64,000 bases of DNA from Candidatus Obscuribacteraceae bacterium (lineage in GTDB: Bacteria; Cyanobacteriota; Vampirovibrionia; Obscuribacterales; Obscuribacteraceae): contig JBGASG010000005.1 in NCBI GenBank assembly GCA_044229845.1, positions 320,001 through 384,000 on the forward strand, read 5' to 3'. Under the pieces are notes generated by a model that was not told the DNA's origin, made no database searches, and worked only from the letters and a program-made list of their open reading frames with translations. A program made the position numbers and the translations under genes. Below are positions 3,683 through 12,593 of this stretch, piece after piece (within the stretch, counting starts at the first letter, position 1; every line of letters begins with the position of its first letter).

Positions 3683-5263
3683 TCAACCTGGCGCGCCGGC
3701 CAGTTGACGGTCTTTTCGCACCGGCAGCGGATACGCGAGGATATCCATCAGCAGCTCCAACCGAGTCCCGCCTGCCAGCATTGGCAGCAAGCTGGGCAGA
3801 CTGTAGTAGTCACCGCTAAACGTATAGGTGTCAACCTCGATATTGTTTCGCGTCAGAGCCGCCTCCAGATGGTTGGAGAATTGCCCGCAGTTGAGAATCA
3901 TGACCGTAGGCAGGGTGCCCAGTTCTTGTTGATATTGCAGCATTGCATCAGCCAGGTAGGGCTTGCCGTTTTCACCTTGATCGGTGATCACGATCACTTG
4001 TTCGACGAGCTGCTTCTTGCGGCGCATCATATCTAATGCCACGCCGCACGAGGTGCCGCCGTCGGCCTTGATGCCTTTGAAAGCCTTTTCCCAGTCGGAG
4101 AGTTCGTTGCCTTTCGCTTCGATTGCGTAAGCGAGGGTGTCGAACGCGTAGACGTAGAGATTGGCCTGGCATATTGGGGCTACGATGGCGCAGAGCTGTT
4201 TTCCAATTTCAATTGCTTGTTGCATGGAACCACTCTTATCGACAAAGATTGCGGTCGGACGCTTGATCTTGGCTTTGGATTTGATCTGCTTGTCGCCGAC
4301 CTTCTCCACCTTTTGGGCCATTTCGGCATCGATGTCGGCAGCTTGCAGGGCTTGCCGCGTCTTGAGCGCGGATACGCGCTTATCGCCTTCGGCTTCCTTC
4401 AGTTTTGCTTCGATCATGCGGCGCAGATCTTTGTTGTCCATGGCACCACGCTTCTTGAGTGAAGCAAGGTTGTTGATCACTTCCTGCGGAGTCATGGCGT
4501 CGACCAGTGCCACCAGCAATGCCGGCGTGACTTGCTTGATCGCCGAGACAGCAACCCGATAGGGAATCTTGTTCTGCACGATCAGTCTTGCCTGTTCGCC
4601 TGAGTTGTTGGTCTTAGCCAGTTGCTTCAAGACGTACAGTCGACTGCCTTCCGGCGGATCGTTGTCGAAGAGCACACGCTGTGCGTATTCGCCGGGCTTG
4701 ATGCGCAGCGACGCATAGAGTGTCTTCAACGAGGAACGCGCGTGCAGCACAACATTGTCGAACTGCTCGTGATTCTTCTCGCGTTGATGCAGGTAGTCTT
4801 CGATGGCGGTGCGTACAGATCGCGGGACGGAACCCGCGACACCAGGAATGAACTTGCCGCCTTCTTCATGACCCTTGATCAAACCGATCACGCGCTCTAC
4901 CTGATAAGGAGGCAGTTCGGTGATCATCGCGATGCCGGCGTTACGGTATTCGTCGGAAAACTTTGATGTGGCCATGTACGCCGCAAACAATTGCTTCAAG
5001 TCATGCACGCTGCCGTTCTTGAAGTACCAGGCGGCGAGCGGACCGAAAAAGCGCGGATCGCGTTCGTGCACGTGTTCGAAAAGTGGCATGTGCGGTGCGA
5101 CCGCACGGTGCGGCGTGCGCAGCAGTGCGTTCAGGATCGCCAGACGAAAGTCTTGCTCGCCGGCGTTGCGTGTGCGAGCCATGAGTTCGGTGAAGTTAGG
5201 CGCAGGGGTGGTCGCCGCTTGATTGGCTCGCGCCGGTCGTCGTCCCCCTCGTCGTGTAGTCAT
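3683..5263 (-). CDS. Ro60/TROVE-like protein: helical N-terminal region plus C-terminal vWA domain
   Basis: MIDAS motif FVDKSGSM...GGTS...ITDQGEN; ~330-aa helical basic N-terminus; 526 aa, the size and architecture of Ro/Rsr; neighbouring Y-RNA-like elements. vWA is firm, the TROVE relationship is inferred. Confidence 0.75.
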   Translation of the reverse strand: MTTRRGGRRPARANQAATTPAPNFTELMARTRNAGEQDFRLAILNALLRTPHRAVAPHMPLFEHVHERDPRFFGPLAAWYFKNGSVHDLKQLFAAYMATSKFSDEYRNAGIAMITELPPYQVERVIGLIKGHEEGGKFIPGVAGSVPRSVRTAIEDYLHQREKNHEQFDNVVLHARSSLKTLYASLRIKPGEYAQRVLFDNDPPEGSRLYVLKQLAKTNNSGEQARLIVQNKIPYRVAVSAIKQVTPALLVALVDAMTPQEVINNLASLKKRGAMDNKDLRRMIEAKLKEAEGDKRVSALKTRQALQAADIDAEMAQKVEKVGDKQIKSKAKIKRPTAIFVDKSGSMQQAIEIGKQLCAIVAPICQANLYVYAFDTLAYAIEAKGNELSDWEKAFKGIKADGGTSCGVALDMMRRKKQLVEQVIVITDQGENGKPYLADAMLQYQQELGTLPTVMILNCGQFSNHLEAALTRNNIEVDTYTFSGDYYSLPSLLPMLAGGTRLELLMDILAYPLPVRKDRQLAGAPG

Positions 5264-5400
5264 GGTGTTGTTCCTATACCTTTAATGTTGGTGTCCTTCG
5301 GGATACCGACATCCACTATGTTGCCAACGGCAATGCGGCACCTTTATATGGTGTCCGCCTGGATAAAACGCGCGCCGGGACAGTGGACAGAGAGGTCTGG

Positions 5401-5473
5401 TCCTGTACAAGTCGGGAGAGCTTTTGAGTTACGTTTGCAGACGTGTGTAGGCTCTTCCTGTTGGAGCACAGGG
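5401..5473 (-). ncRNA. Y-RNA-like element Y1 (minimal scaffold, upstream of the TROVE-like gene)
   Basis: CCUGUGC-UCCAACA-GGAA-GAGC-CUACA...GCUC-UC-CCGACU-U-GUACAGG, the same scaffold as Y2-Y7; extended -10 (TGcTAAAGT) at 5482-5490. Confidence 0.7.
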
Positions 5474-5712
5474 TAAGGGTCACTTTAGCACTTGTCCGCA
5501 AAAATCGCCACGATTTTTGGCTGGCTGTTCTACCAGCCGAGACTGGCTCTGGAAGCGCGTCGACGGTGTTTTATACACGTTTTCGCTAATACGATTCGGA
5601 GAATTTACACCCATGCTGGAGCGGGTTAATGTGGTGACATAGCCCAATTGCCGGAACCACTGACGGCAGCGGGCGATGCGCTCCCACCGACCACACCCGC
5701 GAGGCTACCGCC

Positions 5713-6486
5713 ATGATGCTCACCGCTTTGCTTACCAACATCAAAGAAATTGCGAAGAACTCCAAGCCCACGTACTTCACCAAGGATACGTTCTTCGACA
5801 AGCAGTGGGGGCAGAACACAGCTTTCAACAAAACTCTGGACAAGTCTGTGTATGACCATGAGGACTGCGATGAAGATCAAGAGTCTCAACTGCGCGACGA
5901 GATTCTCGTCAGACTGAAAGCCAAGGGCGGTAGCGGCAGTTTTGTCTCCGGCATTGCGGGCGAATCGATTACATTTCTCGAGTCGTTGAAAAATCGCAAG
6001 GATGCGAAGGCCAAACAACAGCGCCTCTGCAACCAGTCGATGAACGAGCTGCTGGCGCTGATTTTCGAAATGCTCAAATCCTACGCTTACGACTACAACC
6101 ATGCCGTCGGTTACGGACCTCTGCACATCGCCATTACCGATCCGCAAATGGTGACCGAGGTGTTGCGCTTCGATCGTCAGCGCAATCCGCTCGAGTCGGT
6201 GACTTACTTCCGTGCGCGGCTCTCGACCTCGTCGCATTCGCTGGTATTGCGTGGGCAAGACGACGGCATTGTGTTTTTCATATTGCCGGTGGCGCGCGCA
6301 CTAGGATTGACCAAGCAAGAAACGAACTATGAGCCGGCGACTTTGCTGCGCATCAAGGCGGAGAACAATCTTGTCCATTGGGAAACCAAGATCGGAACAC
6401 CCTTGACACCGTCTTCGGTAGAAGCGATCTGCATGGCTGTTTTCCAGTGGTTGATTGAAGAAACCAAAGCGCACATCGCCGAATAG
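5713..6486 (+). CDS. Hypothetical protein, paralogue of the next gene
   Basis: Shares Y..xYN.AVG.GP, RA.L.TS.HSL.L and WETK.G.PLT...FQWLIE.T blocks with 6520..7281. Confidence 0.75.
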   Translation: MMLTALLTNIKEIAKNSKPTYFTKDTFFDKQWGQNTAFNKTLDKSVYDHEDCDEDQESQLRDEILVRLKAKGGSGSFVSGIAGESITFLESLKNRKDAKAKQQRLCNQSMNELLALIFEMLKSYAYDYNHAVGYGPLHIAITDPQMVTEVLRFDRQRNPLESVTYFRARLSTSSHSLVLRGQDDGIVFFILPVARALGLTKQETNYEPATLLRIKAENNLVHWETKIGTPLTPSSVEAICMAVFQWLIEETKAHIAE

Positions 6487-6519
6487 TTTTTGATTTTGAT
6501 ACAGGAGGTCGATTCGACC

Positions 6520-7281
6520 ATGCTTAACGGAATGTTCTCAGGCAACAATAAAGAGCGCAATCGCCCGACGCCGAAACCATTTTCGCAAAACAGTCGCTTC
6601 GACTGCAATTGGGGAAAGGCGTCGCCGGTTGAAAAGGCGCCGCCGCGAGCGGTCGAATCTTCGTCTTCGTCCCGGCGCACCGGCATCTATCCGCAAGTGA
6701 TCACGGGTGAGCATCCGATCGCGCTCGATGCCCGCAGCGTATCGCAAAGACTCAAGGAAACACTCGATACCGGAAACAATAGCGACGGGCATCAGCAGAT
6801 CATTTCCGACCTGGCGCCGCGCGACTTGCTGACCATTATGTATGAGCTGCTGAAGGTTTACGCCGTGGAATACAACTCGGCGGTAGGACTGGGTCCATTC
6901 TATTTAGAACTGACCAGACCGCACGAAGTGTCGGGTCCGCTGCGCCTGCAAAAGGATAGCCGTCCCTCCTCGTGGCTCACAAGAATACGAGCGGCACTGG
7001 CGACATCAACTCATTCGCTTTTGCTTTGTGCAGACGAGGGAGTGGTCACCTTCTATGTCATACCTCTGGAGCAGTTGCATGGCAGCAATGCTCTCGGCAA
7101 AGACGCGGTCGAGGGTCACGAACCGCAGACCTATTTACAGTTGAACAAAATGAGAGGCGGCGTTTTCTACTGGGAGACGAAGGCGGGGTTGCCCCTCACC
7201 ATGTCGCGTGTCGATGCCACGTGCCGTGCGCTATTTCAATGGCTCATTGAAAGAACCGCGGACCGGGTCGCTGGAGACTGA
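6520..7281 (+). CDS. Hypothetical protein, paralogue of the previous gene
   Basis: AGGAGG RBS near 6503; same conserved blocks as 5713..6486. Confidence 0.75.
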   Translation: MLNGMFSGNNKERNRPTPKPFSQNSRFDCNWGKASPVEKAPPRAVESSSSSRRTGIYPQVITGEHPIALDARSVSQRLKETLDTGNNSDGHQQIISDLAPRDLLTIMYELLKVYAVEYNSAVGLGPFYLELTRPHEVSGPLRLQKDSRPSSWLTRIRAALATSTHSLLLCADEGVVTFYVIPLEQLHGSNALGKDAVEGHEPQTYLQLNKMRGGVFYWETKAGLPLTMSRVDATCRALFQWLIERTADRVAGD

Positions 7282-7359
7282 GTTTGGGACGAGCACGCGA
7301 CATTACTCGACTGGTCGATCTGCCCCCCAGGTCGGCCAGTTTTATGTTGGAACTCCGAT

Positions 7360-7435
7360 TGGAGTGATCGACGGTAATCGAAACCGTACCTTGTCGGTTC
7401 ACAGCCGACGGCTCTGCCACTTAAGCTACGACCAC
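7360..7435 (-). tRNA. tRNA-His(GUG), atypical
   Basis: Cloverleaf GTGGTCG/CGATCAC, anticodon arm GTCGG-CTGTGAA-CCGAC, T-loop TTCGATT, encoded CCA; U73, no genomic G-1, U53:A61. Confidence 0.85.
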
Positions 7436-7439
7436 AGCT

Positions 7440-7510
7440 CTCGGGGAATTGGATTCGAACCAATATTGCAACGTTCAAAGCGTTGTGACCTACCATTAGT
7501 CGATCCCCGA
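7440..7510 (-). tRNA. tRNA-Gln(UUG)
   Basis: Acceptor TCGGGGA/TCCCCGA (U1:A72, G73), anticodon arm CAACG-CTTTGAA-CGTTG, T-arm ATTGG-TTCGAAT-CCAAT; CCA not encoded. Confidence 0.9.
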
Positions 7511-7680
7511 TCATCTGCTGCGCTCGGGGAGGAAACGATCTGGTCACTCCGGCACCGGCACTGCAATAGATCCCGACGGAACTGACACCAGTTGGTTTAC
7601 TGGTGTCGCGGGGTCTGTTGCTGGTGCTGGAGTCTCTTCATTGAAGTATGTCTCTGAATGTTGAACTGAATTGATTAGGT

Positions 7681-7755
7681 TGGCCGGAGCGGTTGGAATC
7701 GAACCAACTACCTTCTGCTTCCAAGGCAGACATGCCACCAATGCACTACGCCCCG
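7681..7755 (-). tRNA. tRNA-Pro(UGG), G73 discriminator
   Basis: Acceptor CGGGGCG/CGCTCCG, anticodon arm TCTGC-CTTGGAA-GCAGA, T-arm GTTGG-TTCGATT-CCAAC, ends G-CCA. Confidence 0.85.
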
Positions 7756-7861
7756 AGATGTCTCGCTTTTACTGCGGGCGTCTCGGGTTGGGGCGCAATT
7801 GATGTTGGCGTCTATTCATTGGAGAGGGATCGAGTTAATTGGAGAGGGGGGACTACGTTTG

Positions 7862-7993
7862 ATTGCGACCTGCGCAAGTTATGGGAGCTGTTTTTTTGCT
7901 TTGGCGAGGAATCTCTCCTCAGGGTGGATTCGAACCACGGGCTTTCGCCTTTACCAGTTTGTAAGCTCACATTGTTGGAGCGCAGAACGCAAT
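7862..7993 (-). ncRNA. Y-RNA-like element Y2 (T-arm payload)
   Basis: CUGCGC-UCCAACA-AUGU-GAGC-UUACA...GCUC-CC-AUAACU-U-GCGCAG scaffold; payload CUGGUAA, GGC-GAAA-GCC, T-arm GUGG-UUCGAAU-CCAC and a GAGGA/UCCUC hairpin. Confidence 0.75.
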
Positions 7994-7997
7994 AATT

Positions 7998-8047
7998 ATA
8001 GTAGCACACTTTATCGGAAGCGATCAACTTTATAAACCATATATGGT
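7998..8047 (-). promoter_or_regulatory. Promoter of Y2 and tRNA cluster with ACCATATATGGT palindrome
   Basis: TGcTACTAT extended -10 (7998-8006), TTGATC -35 (8022-8027, 18-bp spacer), palindrome at 8036-8047. Confidence 0.55.
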
Positions 8048-8512
8048 GCCTGGTGTTTACACCACCAGTGGTGCCTTGCGTTCGGTTTCCTCTCCAAAGG
8101 GAATGACGGGCACCAGCACTTGGCTGAGCCCGTTGTTGAAGTAATGATCGCAGCTGTGCGCGGTTTTTCTGCCGCTTTCAATGCTTCTCCCATATGTACG
8201 CATATCTGAGTGAAATCGAAAACTCGTATGCGATTGTGGTGGTGTGTGGTTCCAGTGGGGGAGCGGGCCTCGGCAGCATGGCCGGACCCGTGAGAATAAC
8301 TTCGAATTTGTGATATGTGCGGAGTCGGTCACTGACGAAGTTCCCCCTATGTTCACCGCGTCCGGGGTCAATAGCCCTGTTCATCGCATACGCCCGCTCG
8401 GAGATGAATTGGGGATTCATTCCGCACTTATTATTGCCAGCCGCGGAAATGAAGAGCCTTCATTTCCATGATTGGACAATCCCGAGTTGCAATGGGACGT
8501 GGTCCAAAGGTC

Positions 8513-8633
8513 TTGCCTGTACGAGTCGAGAGAGCCACTTTGAACACCTCCATGGCGGAGGTTTTCGGATTCGAACCGATTCCTTGAAAGGGAATTACCA
8601 GATTGTATGCTCTTCCTGTTGGGGTACAGGCGA
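8513..8633 (-). ncRNA. Y-RNA-like element Y3
   Basis: CCUGUAC-CCCAACA-GGAA-GAGC-AUACA...GCUC-UC-UCGACU-C-GUACAGG; payload CUGGUAA, UUCC-CUUUCAA-GGAA, T-arm UCGG-UUCGAAU-CCGA and ACCUCC/GGAGGU. Confidence 0.8.
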
Positions 8634-8640
8634 TACTATT

Positions 8641-8697
8641 AAAGTAACACGCAAAATGCGTGGTGTCAATAGCCGTGCGATACTAAATATGGTGGCA
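8641..8697 (-). promoter_or_regulatory. Sigma70 promoter plus operator of Y3
   Basis: TTGACA (8664-8669), 17 bp, TACTTT (8641-8646) with extended TG; upstream TGCCACCATATTTAGTATCG. Confidence 0.75.
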
Positions 8698-8857
8698 CTA
8701 CTAAAACAAACGGAGATACGGGCAGCGGCTAGCTATGCCGTGCCCGTGATGATCACTGCGGAGAGCTACTCCGACTGGACCAACCTTTTTCTGTCGATAG
8801 TTTATGAAGCCTTGGCGACAAAAACGATCTCCTTTCTTTCTCTCAGTTCGCGTACTT

Positions 8858-8991
8858 TCTGTACAAGTCGAAGGAGCAGAGTTTTGGTGCTCTACCACTG
8901 AGCTATGAGGGCATAAAGCCCCCAGTAGGATTCGAACCTACGCCCACCCGCTTCGAAAGGCGATTGTATGCTCTAAATGTTAGAGTACAGA
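8858..8991 (-). ncRNA. YrlA-like RNA Y4 (permuted tRNA-like domain)
   Basis: Scaffold plus T-arm GUAGG-UUCGAAU-CCUAC, closed acceptor UGGGGGC-UUUAU-GCCCUCA, UA, D-arm GCUC-AGUGGUA-GAGC. Confidence 0.85.
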
Positions 8992-9012
8992 TCGTCCGCG
9001 GACTTTGAGCAA

Positions 9013-9155
9013 TGTATTCCGTATGAGTCGCAAGAGCGTAAACGCGGTCTCGAATTGCTCTTCCTTTGAGCTACACAGGCATGTTGCCCGCGGCAGGTTT
9101 CGAGTCTGCATACTATCGGGGTTGTCGCGTTTGTATGCTCGGGGACTTGAATACA
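9013..9155 (-). ncRNA. YrlA-like RNA Y5 (more divergent)
   Basis: GAGC-AUACA...GCUC..GCGACU scaffold; degenerate T-arm GCAGA-CUCGAAA-CCUGC, closed acceptor CGCGGGC/GCCUGUG, D-arm GCUC-AAAGGAA-GAGC. Confidence 0.7.
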
Positions 9156-9167
9156 GTTACAAGGAAC

Positions 9168-9223
9168 AATGTAGCAGATAAAGTTAGTGGTGTCAATAGT
9201 GGTGCGCACCATAGGTGGTGGCT
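9168..9223 (-). promoter_or_regulatory. Sigma70 promoter plus operator of Y5/Y4
   Basis: TTGACA (9191-9196), 17 bp, TACATT (9168-9173); TGGTGCGCACCA palindrome at 9200-9211. Confidence 0.8.
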
Positions 9224-9367
9224 TATCGAGACCAACGGAGAAACGGGCAACAGCTAGCAAGGCTGAGCCCGTTATGACCATCGCGAACAGCTAATCCGCT
9301 TAGATCACACACTTCTTGTCGGTTGTTGCACCAAGGCGACAATGAAGATCTCCTTACCTTGATGAAT

Positions 9368-9534
9368 TGATGCGGCTGTATGAGTCGATGGAGCGGAGTA
9401 CAAAATCGAATGCTCTACTAATGAGCTACGAAGGAAAGTTCCTTAGGCAGGATTCGCACCTGCTACCGTTCGAGTGAGACAGTTTTTCAAACTGATTGTA
9501 TGTATGCTCAACCTGTTAGGTTACAGTTGCATCA
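9368..9534 (-). ncRNA. YrlA-like RNA Y6
   Basis: Scaffold plus UCGAA/UUCGA stem, T-arm GCAGG-UGCGAAU-CCUGC, closed acceptor (AAGGA/UCCUU), D-arm GCUC-AUUAGUA-GAGC; extra CAGU-UUGAAAA-ACUG hairpin. Confidence 0.85.
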
Positions 9535-9540
9535 GTCATC

Positions 9541-9596
9541 AATGTAGCAAAGACCGATAATGGTGTCAAGGGCGGTGCGCACCATAGATAGTGGCA
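9541..9596 (-). promoter_or_regulatory. Sigma70 promoter plus operator of Y6
   Basis: TTGACA (9564-9569), 17 bp, TACATT (9541-9546); GGTGCGCACC palindrome at 9574-9583. Confidence 0.8.
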
Positions 9597-9737
9597 CGCG
9601 ACAAACCAGCGGAGAGACGGACAGCAGCCTGGGAAGCTGAGCCCGTCGCGATGCTCGCGAACGCCAGGTCGCGAGACAAGCTTGCTTGTTGTCGGTGATA
9701 GCACCAGGGCAACGAAGTTCTCCTTACCTTGATGAAT

Positions 9738-9888
9738 TGATGCGGCTGTAAGAGTCGATTGAGCTTAGATCAACTATTCGCATGCTCTTACCATCTGAGC
9801 TACAAAAGCCGAAGCCTCTGGCAGGAATCGAACCTGCGACCAAGCGGTTACGTGTGTATGCTCTACCTGTTAGATTACAGTTGCATCA
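9738..9888 (-). ncRNA. YrlA-like RNA Y7
   Basis: Scaffold plus T-arm GCAGG-UUCGAUU-CCUGC, closed acceptor CAGAGGC-UUCG-GCUUUUG, D-arm GCUC-AGAUGGUAA-GAGC. Confidence 0.85.
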
Positions 9889-9894
9889 GTCACT

Positions 9895-9950
9895 AATCTA
9901 GCAAAGCCTAGAAGTGGTGTCAAGTATGGTGCGCACCATAGGTGGTGGCA
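9895..9950 (-). promoter_or_regulatory. Sigma70 promoter plus operator of Y7
   Basis: TTGACA (9918-9923), 17 bp, TAGATT (9895-9900); perfect 16-bp palindrome TATGGTGCGCACCATA at 9925-9940. Confidence 0.8.
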
Positions 9951-10340
9951 GTATTTAGTAAAGCGCTGCGCGGGCAGCGACCTGATTGTCGAGCCCGAAA
10001 TATGCATCTACGCCAACGGCGGTGCTGGTTGTATGGACGGAAAATGACGTCTGCATTTGCTGCATCTGTGAGGACAGGGTCGGTCGAGCCGAGCCGCAAT
10101 TCTCACGGCGATAACCGCCGGCTATGACGCCGTGGTTAAACTGCCATTTTCCTAGTGGTGTTCTGATGTCCTTCACGGACCGAACCTCCATCTCCCCTGC
10201 ACTTCGCGAAAACAAAATTCGCGCGCTGCTATACAAACAACCTGGCAGGCGGAAATTCCATCTTAGGGCCGGCTTGAGAATCCTGTCAATAGGATTTTCG
10301 CCTCTGCATACCTTTAATTCGCTGAACCTACGCTGGACCT

Positions 10341-10985
10341 TTATAAATCCAGCTCTCTATTAATAGATAGATCGCCCACCGTTACGGAATAGTTCCGCTT
10401 CTCCCCGGTGAGGATATGGCGCACCAGCACCTCCGCTGCGACAGACACCACCAGGGTGACCAGATTGCGGGCCAGCGGATAGTCGCAGATGTCGATGCCC
10501 ACGTCGCTTGGCACACGATACTTCTCGTTCCAGATGACTTCGCCGTATCCGTCGTTCATTCCGGCATGCAGGCAAGCGATGGCGTTATCGCGGCAATAAT
10601 CGGCGACCAGCCGGCGAGAAGCCGTATTGTCGAAGACATCAACCACCAGGGTTGCCCCCTTCAGAAATTTTGCCGCATTTTTCTCAGTTAATTCCTGCGC
10701 TCGCGCGGTGATTTCAACTCCCACCTCGCGATACAAAAGATTGCGCAACAACTCTGCTTTTTGCCCACCGACATCGTCCAGCGAATAGACCTGGGTACTG
10801 ACATTGTGCTCTTCCACGCGGTCCTTATCGATCACCGTCATGTTCGTCACACCCATGCGCGCCAGGGTTTCGGCAAGATTCGAGCCGAGCGCCCCCGCGC
10901 CGCAAATCAAAATGCCGGCAGCGGCAATTTTGCGCATCGCCTGTTGTCCGCGGAAAATCTGTTCGTGATGAAATCGATGGCTCAT
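10341..10985 (-). CDS. ThiF/E1-like adenylyltransferase
   Basis: ICGAGALGS, IDKDRVEEHNVSTQ, KAE and VVDVFDN motifs; no CxxC zinc motifs; candidate thiol in DICDYP. Confidence 0.9.
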   Translation of the reverse strand: MSHRFHHEQIFRGQQAMRKIAAAGILICGAGALGSNLAETLARMGVTNMTVIDKDRVEEHNVSTQVYSLDDVGGQKAELLRNLLYREVGVEITARAQELTEKNAAKFLKGATLVVDVFDNTASRRLVADYCRDNAIACLHAGMNDGYGEVIWNEKYRVPSDVGIDICDYPLARNLVTLVVSVAAEVLVRHILTGEKRNYSVTVGDLSINRELDL

Positions 10986-11001
10986 CTAATAATTCCTTGC
11001 A

Positions 11002-11442
11002 CTACTCGACAGCAACCAGAACTAGTCCTTTGAATCGCTGCACGCGGGCGACCGCCCGCGGTTTCTTCTCGTATTCATAAATCCATCCGCGCGCGCCGGC
11101 GCTCGTTTCGATCACACATAAAATCGGCTTCCCAAAACAAAAGCACCACGCATCCAAAGTACGGTCGTCGCGCCCGGAAGGACCAGTGAAACCCTCAGGG
11201 TGCGTGTGATAGAAGCCAATCACATCGCCCTCCGCTTCTTCTCGCGCCAGGACACGTTTGCCGTCAAACCGCACTGAGGTCTCCGAGCCCTTTGTGCGCC
11301 AACGCATCTTGGCGTGCCAGACACCATTGAGGCATTCACCCGTCAACACATAGGCAATTTCCTTGCCGCCTGGAAATTCTCCACCATCGGCAAACTTCAC
11401 TGGTCCGGAGGCGGCGGCGTCCTGCTTACCCGAGGTAGTCAT
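11002..11442 (-). CDS. JAB/MPN (Mov34) metallopeptidase
   Basis: Upstream E (KEIAY) and JAMM motif GFYHTHP-x5-S-x2-D. Confidence 0.85.
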   Translation of the reverse strand: MTTSGKQDAAASGPVKFADGGEFPGGKEIAYVLTGECLNGVWHAKMRWRTKGSETSVRFDGKRVLAREEAEGDVIGFYHTHPEGFTGPSGRDDRTLDAWCFCFGKPILCVIETSAGARGWIYEYEKKPRAVARVQRFKGLVLVAVE

Positions 11443-12295
11443 AATAGTTGCCCGCTTCGCGCAATACTCCGACGACGCTGGTCAGGTCGAATTGCTGATC
11501 TTCCCCGCTCAAGCAAACTCCAGCACTTTGCAGTGTCAGGTCGCCGACTGCCACGTTGACCACGTGATCGCGACCGTCCATTTCAAACCGAACGGTTGCG
11601 TACTGTTGATGCTGATCAGTGTAACGAAAACTTTCCAACGTCGCGCCGGCGTGCCGCAATGCATCGCTGATGCGCGTCCGATCGTCCAGCATCGTCTCGG
11701 TCGGATCGTTACGATGCTTATGTAGATACATCATGCGGTAAGCGAGGCGCTCGCTTGGCACCATTCCGCGAGCACGCACTTCACCAGGTTTGATATCGGC
11801 TTCCAACGACCGGCGCAGAGTTCGCGAAACTGCCGGGTCTCGTTTTCGATCTACAGAATCAAACCAGAAGGCTGCGCCATCGAAGCGCGCATGAATGGTA
11901 TCGAAATTGGTGCAGCCCAGAACCAGCTGCACGGGCACCGGACCAGATAACCGCAAGCGTGTGTCAGCTTCGGAATATGCCAGCGCCCACCATGTTTTAT
12001 CTAATTGATCGACGAGCACCAGACGCACGCGAGGAAACAACGCCAGATATTTTGAGACAAGCGAAAGCGGCGCCGTTTCCACGACTTCTGCCACGCCTTC
12101 CTCTACCATGCGCAAGATACAAAATCCTGTTTCTCTCGTGCGCACTTTCATTTCATAGACAATGCCCGCCACGCGAACGCGCACCTTACCGCCTGCAACG
12201 ATCGGAGCAAGAAACGTTGTCTGCGACAACTTCTTTTCTTCCTCTTCCATTTTGGCAATCATCGCCAGCGGATCGGGCCGCTCACGTTCTGTCAT
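11426..12295 (-). CDS. Conserved hypothetical protein of the Ubl operon; candidate E2-like (SAGVCLS)
   Basis: Lies between Ubl and JAB and overlaps the JAB start; C-terminal G-V-C-L resembles the UBC active-site G-x-I-C-L. Function is inferred. Confidence 0.6.
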   Translation of the reverse strand: MTERERPDPLAMIAKMEEEEKKLSQTTFLAPIVAGGKVRVRVAGIVYEMKVRTRETGFCILRMVEEGVAEVVETAPLSLVSKYLALFPRVRLVLVDQLDKTWWALAYSEADTRLRLSGPVPVQLVLGCTNFDTIHARFDGAAFWFDSVDRKRDPAVSRTLRRSLEADIKPGEVRARGMVPSERLAYRMMYLHKHRNDPTETMLDDRTRISDALRHAGATLESFRYTDQHQQYATVRFEMDGRDHVVNVAVGDLTLQSAGVCLSGEDQQFDLTSVVGVLREAGNYYDYLG

Positions 12296-12320
12296 GATGG
12301 AGCACCGCGCACCCGGCTGA

Positions 12321-12593
12321 TTAACCGAATACGGCTTCTGGGCGCACAGTAATGTTGCCATTTTCGTGGCGTTCGATCACCGTGCTGCTCAGATGTTGGG
12401 GCGGTACTTCCATAAAACGTGCCACAGCGGCGCGAATGTCTGCATCGCTGGAACCCGGGGTCAGCTCGAGCAAATCAAGTGCGATGTCGCGGCTGCGACC
12501 TTGAATGCGTACGTGCACGACCGGACCGGTTTGCGTTTGCGGCTCGGTACCAGTGGCGCGGTTGTACAGGTTGTTGATGTCATCGTTTGCCAT
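12321..12593 (-). CDS. Small ubiquitin-like candidate ending in ...PEAVFG
   Basis: 90 aa with beta-beta-alpha-beta-beta pattern and C-terminal Gly; AAGGAGGG RBS; first gene of an operon with JAB and ThiF. Confidence 0.7.
   Translation of the reverse strand: MANDDINNLYNRATGTEPQTQTGPVVHVRIQGRSRDIALDLLELTPGSSDADIRAAVARFMEVPPQHLSSTVIERHENGNITVRPEAVFG

Follow-up and report, generated by a model that had tools for sequence, protein, structure and literature searches.

What are the seven similar elements that lie upstream of a Ro-like gene in a member of the Obscuribacteraceae, and why do they lie there? The elements occupy positions 5,401 to 9,888 of a 64,000-nucleotide stretch of Candidatus Obscuribacteraceae bacterium (GCA_044229845.1, contig JBGASG010000005.1, positions 320,001 to 384,000), hereafter the window. 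A sequence-only reading had described them as noncoding RNAs that join one constant scaffold to variable payloads, and had proposed the scaffold as a binding handle for the neighboring vWA protein and probably as a distinct class of Y RNA. We find a covarying two-helix stalk with conserved loop strands, heads derived from tRNA, and a tight genomic coupling to a clade of Ro60-like proteins. We consider it probable that the seven elements form an undescribed subfamily of Y RNAs related to YrlA, in which the stalk binds the Ro60-like ring and the tRNA-derived head serves as an interchangeable adaptor for tRNA-handling enzymes when RNA is damaged or translation is under stress. In other words, this is a bacterial Y RNA variant with its own Ro60 clade, YrlA-like by anatomy but not a member of YrlA by its defining motif.

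On re-inspection all seven copies are found on the minus strand where they had been placed (Table 1), 0.1 to 4.5 kb upstream of the Ro60-like gene and on the same strand. The 5' motif of the scaffold has six exact matches in the window, all within 5401..9888, and none in 100 first-order Markov resamples; the 3' motif has five. One copy (9013-9155) had been singled out for its divergent 5' side, and it indeed scores 30 bits against R1, a covariance model built from 44 copies, compared with 52-65 bits for the other window copies. Across the 5.16-Mb, 88%-complete genome R1 gives exactly eight matches, the seven copies and one solitary copy, but all eight were in the training set and their scores are therefore not independent. 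The solitary copy is 75 nt long and lies on another contig far from the Ro60-like gene (G000:C8:227053-227127, equivalent to L081 6054-6128), in the intergenic space between a small gene and a dipeptidase-like open reading frame (ORF). It is a possible candidate for a trans-encoded ligand.

The scaffold consists of a closing helix of 7-8 bp, an internal loop in which YCYAAC-N faces RACUY, an inner helix of about 8 bp, a YUACA strand and a payload of 22-167 nt. All three closing-helix variants that had been reported (CUGCGC/GCGCAG, CUGUAC/GUACAG and CUGUAA/UUACAG) are present. The loop strands are conserved as YCYAAC on the 5' side and, across species, as RACUY rather than CGACU on the 3' side (AACUU in copy 7862-7993). 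The positions formerly written as N4 and N2-NC are not free spacers; for the most part they extend the inner helix to about 8 bp, with Watson-Crick pairs in register in 28-31 of 49 cases at each of four positions and in 7-16 of 49 off register. Within the inner helix, GAGC/GCUC is replaced by GAAC/GUUC in 7 of 72 copies.

Absence of covariation had been named as an outcome that could refute the proposal, and compensatory changes were found across species in two separate comparisons. Anchors defined by sequence only, with no requirement for pairing, gave 73 copies from the window and 81 loci, from which a single row with the wrong 3' partner (L020) was dropped. Among 49 unique closing-helix pairs, cognate strands form 6.69 of 8 Watson-Crick pairs, compared with 4.41 ± 0.19 for shuffled partners and a maximum of 5.12 in 10,000 shuffles. 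A second comparison used 44 copies in an unfitted MAFFT alignment, where paired cells make up 88.3%, compared with 73.7% in shuffles and 24-48% when the strands are slid, and 125 double changes are seen where shuffles give 47.9, a value that none of 500 shuffles reached. The scaffold covaries across Melainabacteria, Cyanobacteria and Planctomycetota. Thermodynamic folding agrees in part, as five of the six window copies folded have z scores of -2.3 to -3.5 (9368-9534 was not among the six) and copy 9746-9880 reaches only -0.87.

The identity of the neighboring protein is backed by its predicted structure and by a profile match. The model of the 526-residue protein (pLDDT 88.7) is predicted to have a full-length Ro60 fold, and in searches with residues 29-526 the top 11 listed Foldseek rows are all Ro60, with TM scores of 0.54-0.64 over about 490 columns. 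A profile built from an alignment of the family finds Ro60 sequences of phage and human origin (E 1e-5 to 1e-4), and hhalign against canonical cyanobacterial TROVE gives 96.8% probability (E 2.6e-10, 423 columns). Profile and fold were needed for this assignment, given that a single-sequence search of solved structures reached only E 0.06. Pfam has no match for the protein and no PF05731 match anywhere in the 88%-complete genome, although two close homologues match vWA_Ro60 just below the cut-off; for this protein and for the Ubl candidate and cysteine protein described below, NCBIfam gives only weak partial matches far below cut-off. The nearest named homologues are from Ca. Obscuribacterales. 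A homologous gene with 46% identity is carried by a 595-kb uncultured phage (LR756511.1; locus L104, 4135-7288), with eight scaffold RNAs upstream.

RNA and protein travel together across genomes, in tallies that are not tests since related genomes are not independent. Among 121 genomes of the class, both occur in the same five, including that of the window, and the remaining 116 yielded neither. Among 201 genomes of the phylum, Pfam TROVE is found in 31, the Ro60-like clade in 24 and both in six. When 48 of these were searched with R1, the RNA was found in 22 of 23 with the Ro60-like clade, compared with 2 of 25 with canonical Ro60 alone; the remaining clade genome carries only part of the gene. 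Locally the picture is the same: 77 of 80 related loci have a listed R1 match, in another a copy is recognized by pattern, and upstream sequence is missing from the last two. Of 293 copies, 266 lie upstream on the strand of the gene and 250 within 4 kb of it. In 15 short loci with canonical TROVE or YrlA, R1 gives no match. Occurrence of the motif independent of the vWA gene had been named as a refuting outcome; in this genome, which does carry the gene, the solitary copy lies apart from it, and the coupling overall is tight. Taken with the covariation, association with this clade rather than with canonical Ro60 argues for the distinct Y RNA class that had been suggested. Six scaffold copies in relatives lie on the strand opposite the Ro60-like gene and are divergently transcribed (L008 9295-9717, L009 4180-4586, L010 6051-6184, L005 9701-9785).

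The payloads had been called exchangeable, and the heads do vary, yet they are not arbitrary. What the sequence-only reading overlooked is that they are built from modules derived from tRNA. A T loop or T arm is present in all six long window copies, and the seventh has no head. Four of the seven have the permuted order of YrlA, from T arm through a closed acceptor-like hairpin to D arm; of the others, one places an anticodon-like arm (UUC) ahead of its T arm, one has a small hairpin, and one is headless. A normal cloverleaf with free acceptor ends is absent from the seven copies; in the window as a whole, ARAGORN and Rfam detect only three separate tRNA genes. A wider set of 301 copies (the seven window copies and 294 non-window rows among the 300 listed of 320 R1 matches) sorts by rough motif classes as follows: the head has normal D-to-T order in 92, a permuted order in 46, a single arm in 31 and no recognized arm in 132. 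Relatives carry full cloverleaf heads: 77 normal-order heads across 43 loci display 23 anticodons, 12 of them inside a single 25-copy stem family, and keep U33 in 73 of 77 and a purine at position 37 in 76 of 77. ARAGORN at a relaxed threshold places a tRNA inside 95 of the 301 copies, several relatives' copies exceed the Rfam tRNA cut-off, and CCA stands near the expected place in 24 of the 77.

Two further kinds of head were noticed in relatives. Nostoc-type copies (L044, L047, L052, L056, L063, L067, L068, L070, L077 and L079; for example L044 7745-7870) carry CUA (13 of 77) or UCA/UUA anticodons and would read stop codons if ever released and charged; in some of these heads CCA directly follows the acceptor-like strand. 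Non-tRNA payloads are also kept on the scaffold (for example L063 12598-12808, L046 7735-7922 and L045 9628-9778), in conserved classes. One class, of 205 nt, directly precedes the cysteine-protein gene (described below) in several loci; a second is 190 nt long, and a third is marked by TGCAAGCC...AGCAGGC. In the loci scanned, Rfam has no match for any of them.

The scaffold also contains two features of YrlA itself. The CUAc that follows the inner helix appears as HUACA in 283 of 301 copies and as YUAY in 234, and the AcUuG that precedes the closing helix appears as ACUUG in 243. Because YUAC and ACUUG are shared, the scaffold is a relative of YrlA with a rewritten 5' strand, a relation that had been missed. 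A comparison with Rfam had been suggested and bears this out in part: the four T-stem-D copies of the seven match YrlA at 24-38 bits, the best being RNA 1 (38.3 bits, E 6e-6), all below the gathering score of 69. That cut-off is strict, as canonical cyanobacterial candidates also reach only 55 bits. At gathering score Rfam finds only tRNAs in the window and eight related loci; thus there is no catalogued family for the scaffold or for the trailers described next. The statement that the loop recalls but does not match the GGUCCGA/UUGACU helix of canonical Y RNAs was accurate, as GGUCCGA is found in 0 of 301 copies.

A sigma-70-like or extended -10 site lies just 5' of six of the seven copies (the exception is 8854-8994). 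The total of six in the promoter scan is not above chance (4.6 ± 1.9 in shuffled sequence), and what support there is comes from the position before the copies. A second repeated RNA-like family, likewise overlooked before, trails the Y-like genes (repeat families D2 and D5). Its members have a purine-rich 5' GGAGA, for which a 3' UCUCC is often the pairing partner. Their terminal hairpin, ACGGGC-U-CAGC...GCUG-NN-GCCCGU, covaries in another genus (97.5% of cells paired and four double changes in only eight sequences). A conserved small peptide behind the AAGGAGA motif of the trailers was considered and rejected, as frames and lengths vary by eye between copies. We also noted a near-palindrome, CACCAYMTATRGTG, which resembles an NrdR box, at 9934-9947 and 9207-9220, upstream of two of the promoters, with variants near 8690, 8040 and 3590. 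It occurs at 45 sites genome-wide where 0.26 are expected, scattered in and between genes without functional theme; it was dropped as a regulon site and looks more like a chromosome-wide binding site.

Of 24 runs listed, 21 were RNA libraries, and four runs from four studies were mapped; RNA runs with small word shares were left out, with two exceptions. RNA contigs cover the array in all four studies, and in three far more deeply than the protein genes of the same query. In bins over 7201-10000, depth ranges from 8 to 175 in one run and peaks at 175 and 63 in two more, the fourth being shallow, compared with 0-4 on protein genes, including those at 5700-7300 within the same query. Where contigs are lacking, as over most of 10400-11600, the gap does not imply silence. 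The deepest contigs of the locus correspond to a 231-nt element behind RNA 5, recovered as 8255-8485 (depth 478), 8255-8495 and 8312-8487 (depth 283) in three studies, which has no Rfam match at E<=10.

Upstream of the array lies a set of genes that suggests a ubiquitin-like (Ubl) pathway. Counted over 81 sequences (80 loci, many of them incomplete, and the window), a small protein ending in glycine has homologues in 55, with an F/Y-G end in 54 of these. An E1-like enzyme has GxGxxG in 37 of 37 homologues and the cysteine motif DxCxYP in 35 of 37; its best NCBIfam matches are ThiF/MoeB sulfur-carrier adenylyltransferases, all under their cut-offs. Between them are a JAB peptidase and a protein of 280-310 residues with an invariant C261, here called the cysteine protein. 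Complex prediction pairs the cysteine protein with the Ro60-like ring at a score of 0.62, where the best of three controls scores 0.00; runs agree in at least 46% of contacts and partner pLDDT is at least 70. The mark used for such scores was reached by 116 of 157 solved pairs and 2 of 215 mismatched pairs, counts that are only rough for the alignments used here. In the predicted complex, the cysteine protein docks through its N-terminal helix, residues 9-17 of the 289-aa form, on ring helices 191-258. Its own fold has no clear match (best Foldseek E 2.5e-3; best VIA-align Z 6.0 over the whole model) and an Atlas search gave no usable match; weak OB/cold-shock-like barrels are present, and the protein may belong to the E2 or another family. 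Rarer neighbors are related to translation or repair, namely L7/L12 (15/81), Tpt1 (13/81) and EF-Ts (8/81). Extra genes for these three proteins recur beside the locus in cyanobacteria (L041 113-505, L035 11661-12266, L048 9197-9754), pointing to a setting of translation stress.

We propose the following sequence of events, each step of which is conditional. Promoters in the array would make precursors that are trimmed to RNAs of 70-170 nt. The YCYAAC and RACUY strands would replace GNCGAA as the recognition site, with the protein counterpart changed from HRDALRLAH to LKTLYASLR. Once loaded, an RNA would display a tRNA elbow, in some cases together with an anticodon loop, and thereby bring a nuclease, a ligase or some other tRNA-binding factor to the ring. 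The analogy for this step is PNPase, which is tethered by YrlA and Yrn1. Finally, and this is the weakest step, the E1 may activate the small G-ending protein and pass it to the ring-bound cysteine protein, which would then act on the target captured by the RNA. That the Ubl module acts at the ring is likely. We hold as a tentative and rather doubtful idea that the system performs RNA-programmed ubiquitin-like tagging, in which a cysteine transfer protein and an exchangeable tRNA-mimic RNA are bound to different faces of the ring.

Several observations count against the interpretation of the array as Ro-binding Y RNAs linked to a Ubl module. The motif bound by Rsr (GNCGAAN0-1G) is essentially missing, with GNCGAR in the first 30 nt of only 2 of 301 copies, although it is present in the canonical-TROVE neighbor L098. 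The protein side has changed as well: R182, D183, L187 and H189, invariant in eight canonical proteins, lie in the helix HRD-x-LRL-x-H, which we take to be the contact of Ro60 with Y RNA, and these residues are altered in the Ro60-like protein. With both the RNA motif and the helix residues changed, binding is argued from co-divergence only. The covariation shuffles take no account of relatedness, and in the 44-copy alignment the number of pairs with any double change (12, compared with 10.3; equaled in 31 of 500 shuffles) is not above control. The coupling has exceptions in the solitary copy and in one copy each in the 2 of 25 genomes that lack the Ro60-like clade gene. RNA contigs give no strand, ends or level and may include DNA; some bridge several elements (8702-9380, 9351-9750), and the deepest (8255-8485) is none of the seven copies. 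The Ubl candidate, cysteine protein and E1 occur in only 55, 40 and 37 of the 81 sequences, and JAB in five, while no PNPase or RtcB gene cluster is among the 45 commonest neighbors.

Other explanations make different use of the same observations. The array could be a DNA-level by-product of local duplication of promoter units, with no function as RNA, and promoter, RNA and trailer were indeed duplicated together, with 72-88% identity among the upstream units. Yet the payloads of the six long window copies are only 47-66% alike, compensatory changes extend across four phyla, and coupling to the Ro60-like clade is strict, such that we regard this explanation as largely refuted. Alternatively, the RNAs could be precursors of reserve tRNAs, with the stalk removed to free working or suppressor tRNAs as in the stress-induced tRNA arrays of cyanobacteria. 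The tRNA predictions and CCA sequences in relatives are what this would lead one to expect, as is the account of M. smegmatis YrlA, which is cleaved by RNase P and gains CCA (PMC4201824). None of the seven window copies has normal order, however: the acceptor stem is closed in the four permuted ones, another is headless, and in relatives the anticodons change freely on an unchanged body. We consider this reading very unlikely.

Two alternatives keep the Ro60-like ring and change what it is for. As Ro-stabilized decoys, the RNAs might mainly sequester or signal anticodon nucleases and other toxins directed at tRNA during conflicts with phages or between bacteria, with many heads widening the range trapped. 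This would fit the retention of U33 and purine 37 while 23 anticodons vary, the patchy distribution even within a genus, and the phage that carries the gene with its eight copies. The variety of anticodons fits neutral drift in a non-decoding RNA as well, though, only one of the seven window heads has an anticodon-like loop, and the RNA libraries that cover the array come from ordinary sludge samples. We think the decoy function unlikely; it overlaps the explanation that we favor and differs in the client. A sulfur relay is, in our view, quite improbable: here the E1 and the small G-ending protein would work as a ThiS/Urm1-like pair, and the ring with its tRNA-like RNAs would be a platform for tRNA thiolation or repair rather than protein tagging. 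The sulfur-carrier character of the E1's sub-threshold NCBIfam matches, the lack of a clear E2 fold and the weak barrels in the cysteine protein, the spare tRNA genes in the array and the Tpt1 neighbors are all compatible with it. It does not account for the JAB peptidase in the operon or for the cysteine kept in 35 of 37 E1 sequences, and no cysteine desulfurase, rhodanese or thiouridylase cluster is among the commonest neighbors.

Table 1. Features of the window and of related loci, with coordinates in the window unless a locus is named.
Feature	Coordinates	Strand	Description	Support
Y-like RNA 1	9741..9884	-	Scaffold and YrlA-type permuted payload: T arm, closed acceptor-like hairpin, D arm	R1 55.7 bits
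Y-like RNA 2	9371..9530	-	Scaffold and T-stem-D payload, 106 nt	R1 52 bits; YrlA 31.1 bits
Y-like RNA 3	9014..9160	-	Divergent 5' strand; T-stem-D payload, imperfect T arm	R1 30 bits; YrlA 24 bits
Y-like RNA 4	8854..8994	-	T-stem-D payload; directly after RNA 3; no promoter-like site of its own	R1 55.6 bits; YrlA 35.2 bits
Y-like RNA 5	8512..8633	-	Anticodon-like arm (loop CUUUCAA, UUC), T arm, hairpin	R1 65.2 bits
Y-like RNA 6	7862..7993	-	Small hairpin, T arm, hairpin; extra outer helix AUUGCG/CGCAAU	R1 61.9 bits; fold z -3.46
Y-like RNA 7	5398..5475	-	Minimal scaffold, 24-nt loop, 135 bases upstream of Ro60-like gene	R1 63.1 bits; fold z -3.03
Ro60/Rsr-like protein, divergent	3683..5263	-	526 aa; helical ring and vWA domain with DxSxS	
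Sigma-70-like promoter site	9895..9923	-	TTGACA, extended -10; before RNA 1	Consensus match only
Similar sigma-70-like sites	9541-9569, 9168-9196, 8641-8669, 7998-8027	-	A further site, an extended -10, at 5482-5490	
Trailer family members, window	8255-8485, 9605-9725, 9231-9355, 8700-8834, 8095-8191, 9960-10196	-		
Trailer family members, relatives	L094 8160-8275, 8480-8592; L005 8690-8810			
Trailer hairpins	9617-9646, 9243-9272, 8718-8747, 8106-8133, 9971-9998, 8263-8291	-	9617-9646 is behind RNA 1	
231-nt RNA-like element	8255..8485	-	Behind Y-like RNA 5; ends in trailer hairpin 8263-8291	
tRNA-Pro(UGG)	7681..7755	-	Inside array	
tRNA-Gln(UUG)	7440-7510	-	Inside array	
tRNA-His(GUG)	7360-7435	-	Inside array	
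Small ubiquitin-like candidate	12321..12593	-	Ends PEAVFG; putative beta-grasp	No Pfam match
Cysteine protein	11426..12361	-	Invariant G-x-C-L-x-G motif	No Pfam match; 40/81 sequences
Prok-JAB peptidase	11002..11442	-		PF14464 E 2.5e-7; 5/81 sequences
ThiF/E1-like adenylating enzyme	10341..10985	-		PF00899 E 7e-33; 37/81 sequences

The array is interrupted by genes of other kinds. Each of its three tRNA genes has a second copy elsewhere in the genome. It is also broken up by two plus-strand ORFs (5713-6486 and 6490-7281). These look alike by eye in their central part; Pfam has no match for either, and neither is among the common neighbors of related loci.

If RNA-directed tagging were true, each RNA would be a bait that chooses a tRNA-binding target for the modifier, such as an anticodon nuclease, a phage or toxin effector or a stalled-ribosome factor, and the array would be a set of E3 substrate adaptors. 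The predicted contact of the cysteine protein is a first physical hypothesis linking Ro ribonucleoproteins to ubiquitin-like chemistry. The RNA family bears on a broader question, namely why bacterial Y RNAs mimic tRNA and what their heads bind. It is a natural series: within one genome, a constant handle carries heads that are permuted, in normal order, partial or missing altogether. The RNA motif and the protein helix have changed together, which offers a direct test of Ro recognition, and the family occurs in cultured, non-pathogenic cyanobacteria, among others. The Ro60-like clade is about as frequent as canonical Ro60 in the sampled phylum (24 compared with 31 of 201 genomes), yet it has been missed by Pfam TROVE and Rfam YrlA. 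We found no description of the scaffold or of a Ro60-Ubl operon in the literature; this novelty is provisional, as work on divergent ROT/TROVE clades could cover them. The papers on Anabaena TrcR and on tRNA arrays make no mention of Ro60, TROVE or Y RNA. Archaeal viruses with both Ro60 and ThiF genes have been reported, and the accessible text of that report does not draw the link (10.1101/2021.07.29.454249).

How, then, does the system relate to those already described? The closest is YrlA (RF02553), which like the present RNAs has a terminal stalk with an internal loop, a tRNA-like domain, several RNAs per locus, a T arm 5' of the D arm with a closed acceptor-like stem (in four of seven here), YUAY after the inner helix and a 3' ACUUG, and which lies on the same strand near a gene of Ro60 fold (assigned here by predicted fold, not by Pfam). 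According to the available text of Chen et al. 2014 (PMC4201824), the tRNA domain of YrlA is permuted, YrlA binds Rsr together with PNPase, the interactors of bacterial Y RNA tRNA-like heads are unknown, and the genomes were gathered by TROVE annotation. That text reports up to four YrlA candidates per locus, and multi-copy loci as such are thus known. The present RNAs differ in having YCYAAC instead of GNCGAA, in reaching 9-10 copies per locus or genome, in bearing permuted, normal-order and non-tRNA heads on one scaffold, and in a partner without a Pfam TROVE match. Deinococcus Yrn1 and Yrn2 and metazoan Y RNAs share the long terminal stem and, in part of the copies, a 3' strand GACU. The Yrn1-like orientation (D, anticodon arm, T) is found in relatives (92 of 301 copies), and the minimal hairpins resemble Yrn2 and YrlB; GGUCCGA is nevertheless absent here, and a bulged helix cannot arise from the two loop strands.

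The protein has, by prediction, the full-length helical ring and vWA domain of Ro60/Rsr (PDB 1YVP, 2NVO, 9KOP, 9NEN), with DxSxS invariant. It differs in sequence (13-16% identity, no PF05731 match) and belongs to a separate, paralogous clade, both forms being present in six of 201 genomes. Where canonical cyanobacterial Ro60 has an invariant R-D-x-x-x-L-x-H, the Ro60-like protein has K-T-x-x-x-L-R, and its clade is roughly 480 aa long compared with the 531-536 aa given for cyanobacterial Ro60 (PMC4201824). As for the operon, a ThiF/E1 enzyme, a JAB peptidase and a small G-ending protein also occur together in prokaryotic Ubl/E1/JAB operons, as set out in the available text of Iyer et al. 2006 (PMC1779556, types 4b and 6a-6e). 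Unlike the operons described there, the one in the window has a cysteine protein in place of a recognizable E2, and is tied to a Ro60-like gene and an array of RNAs.

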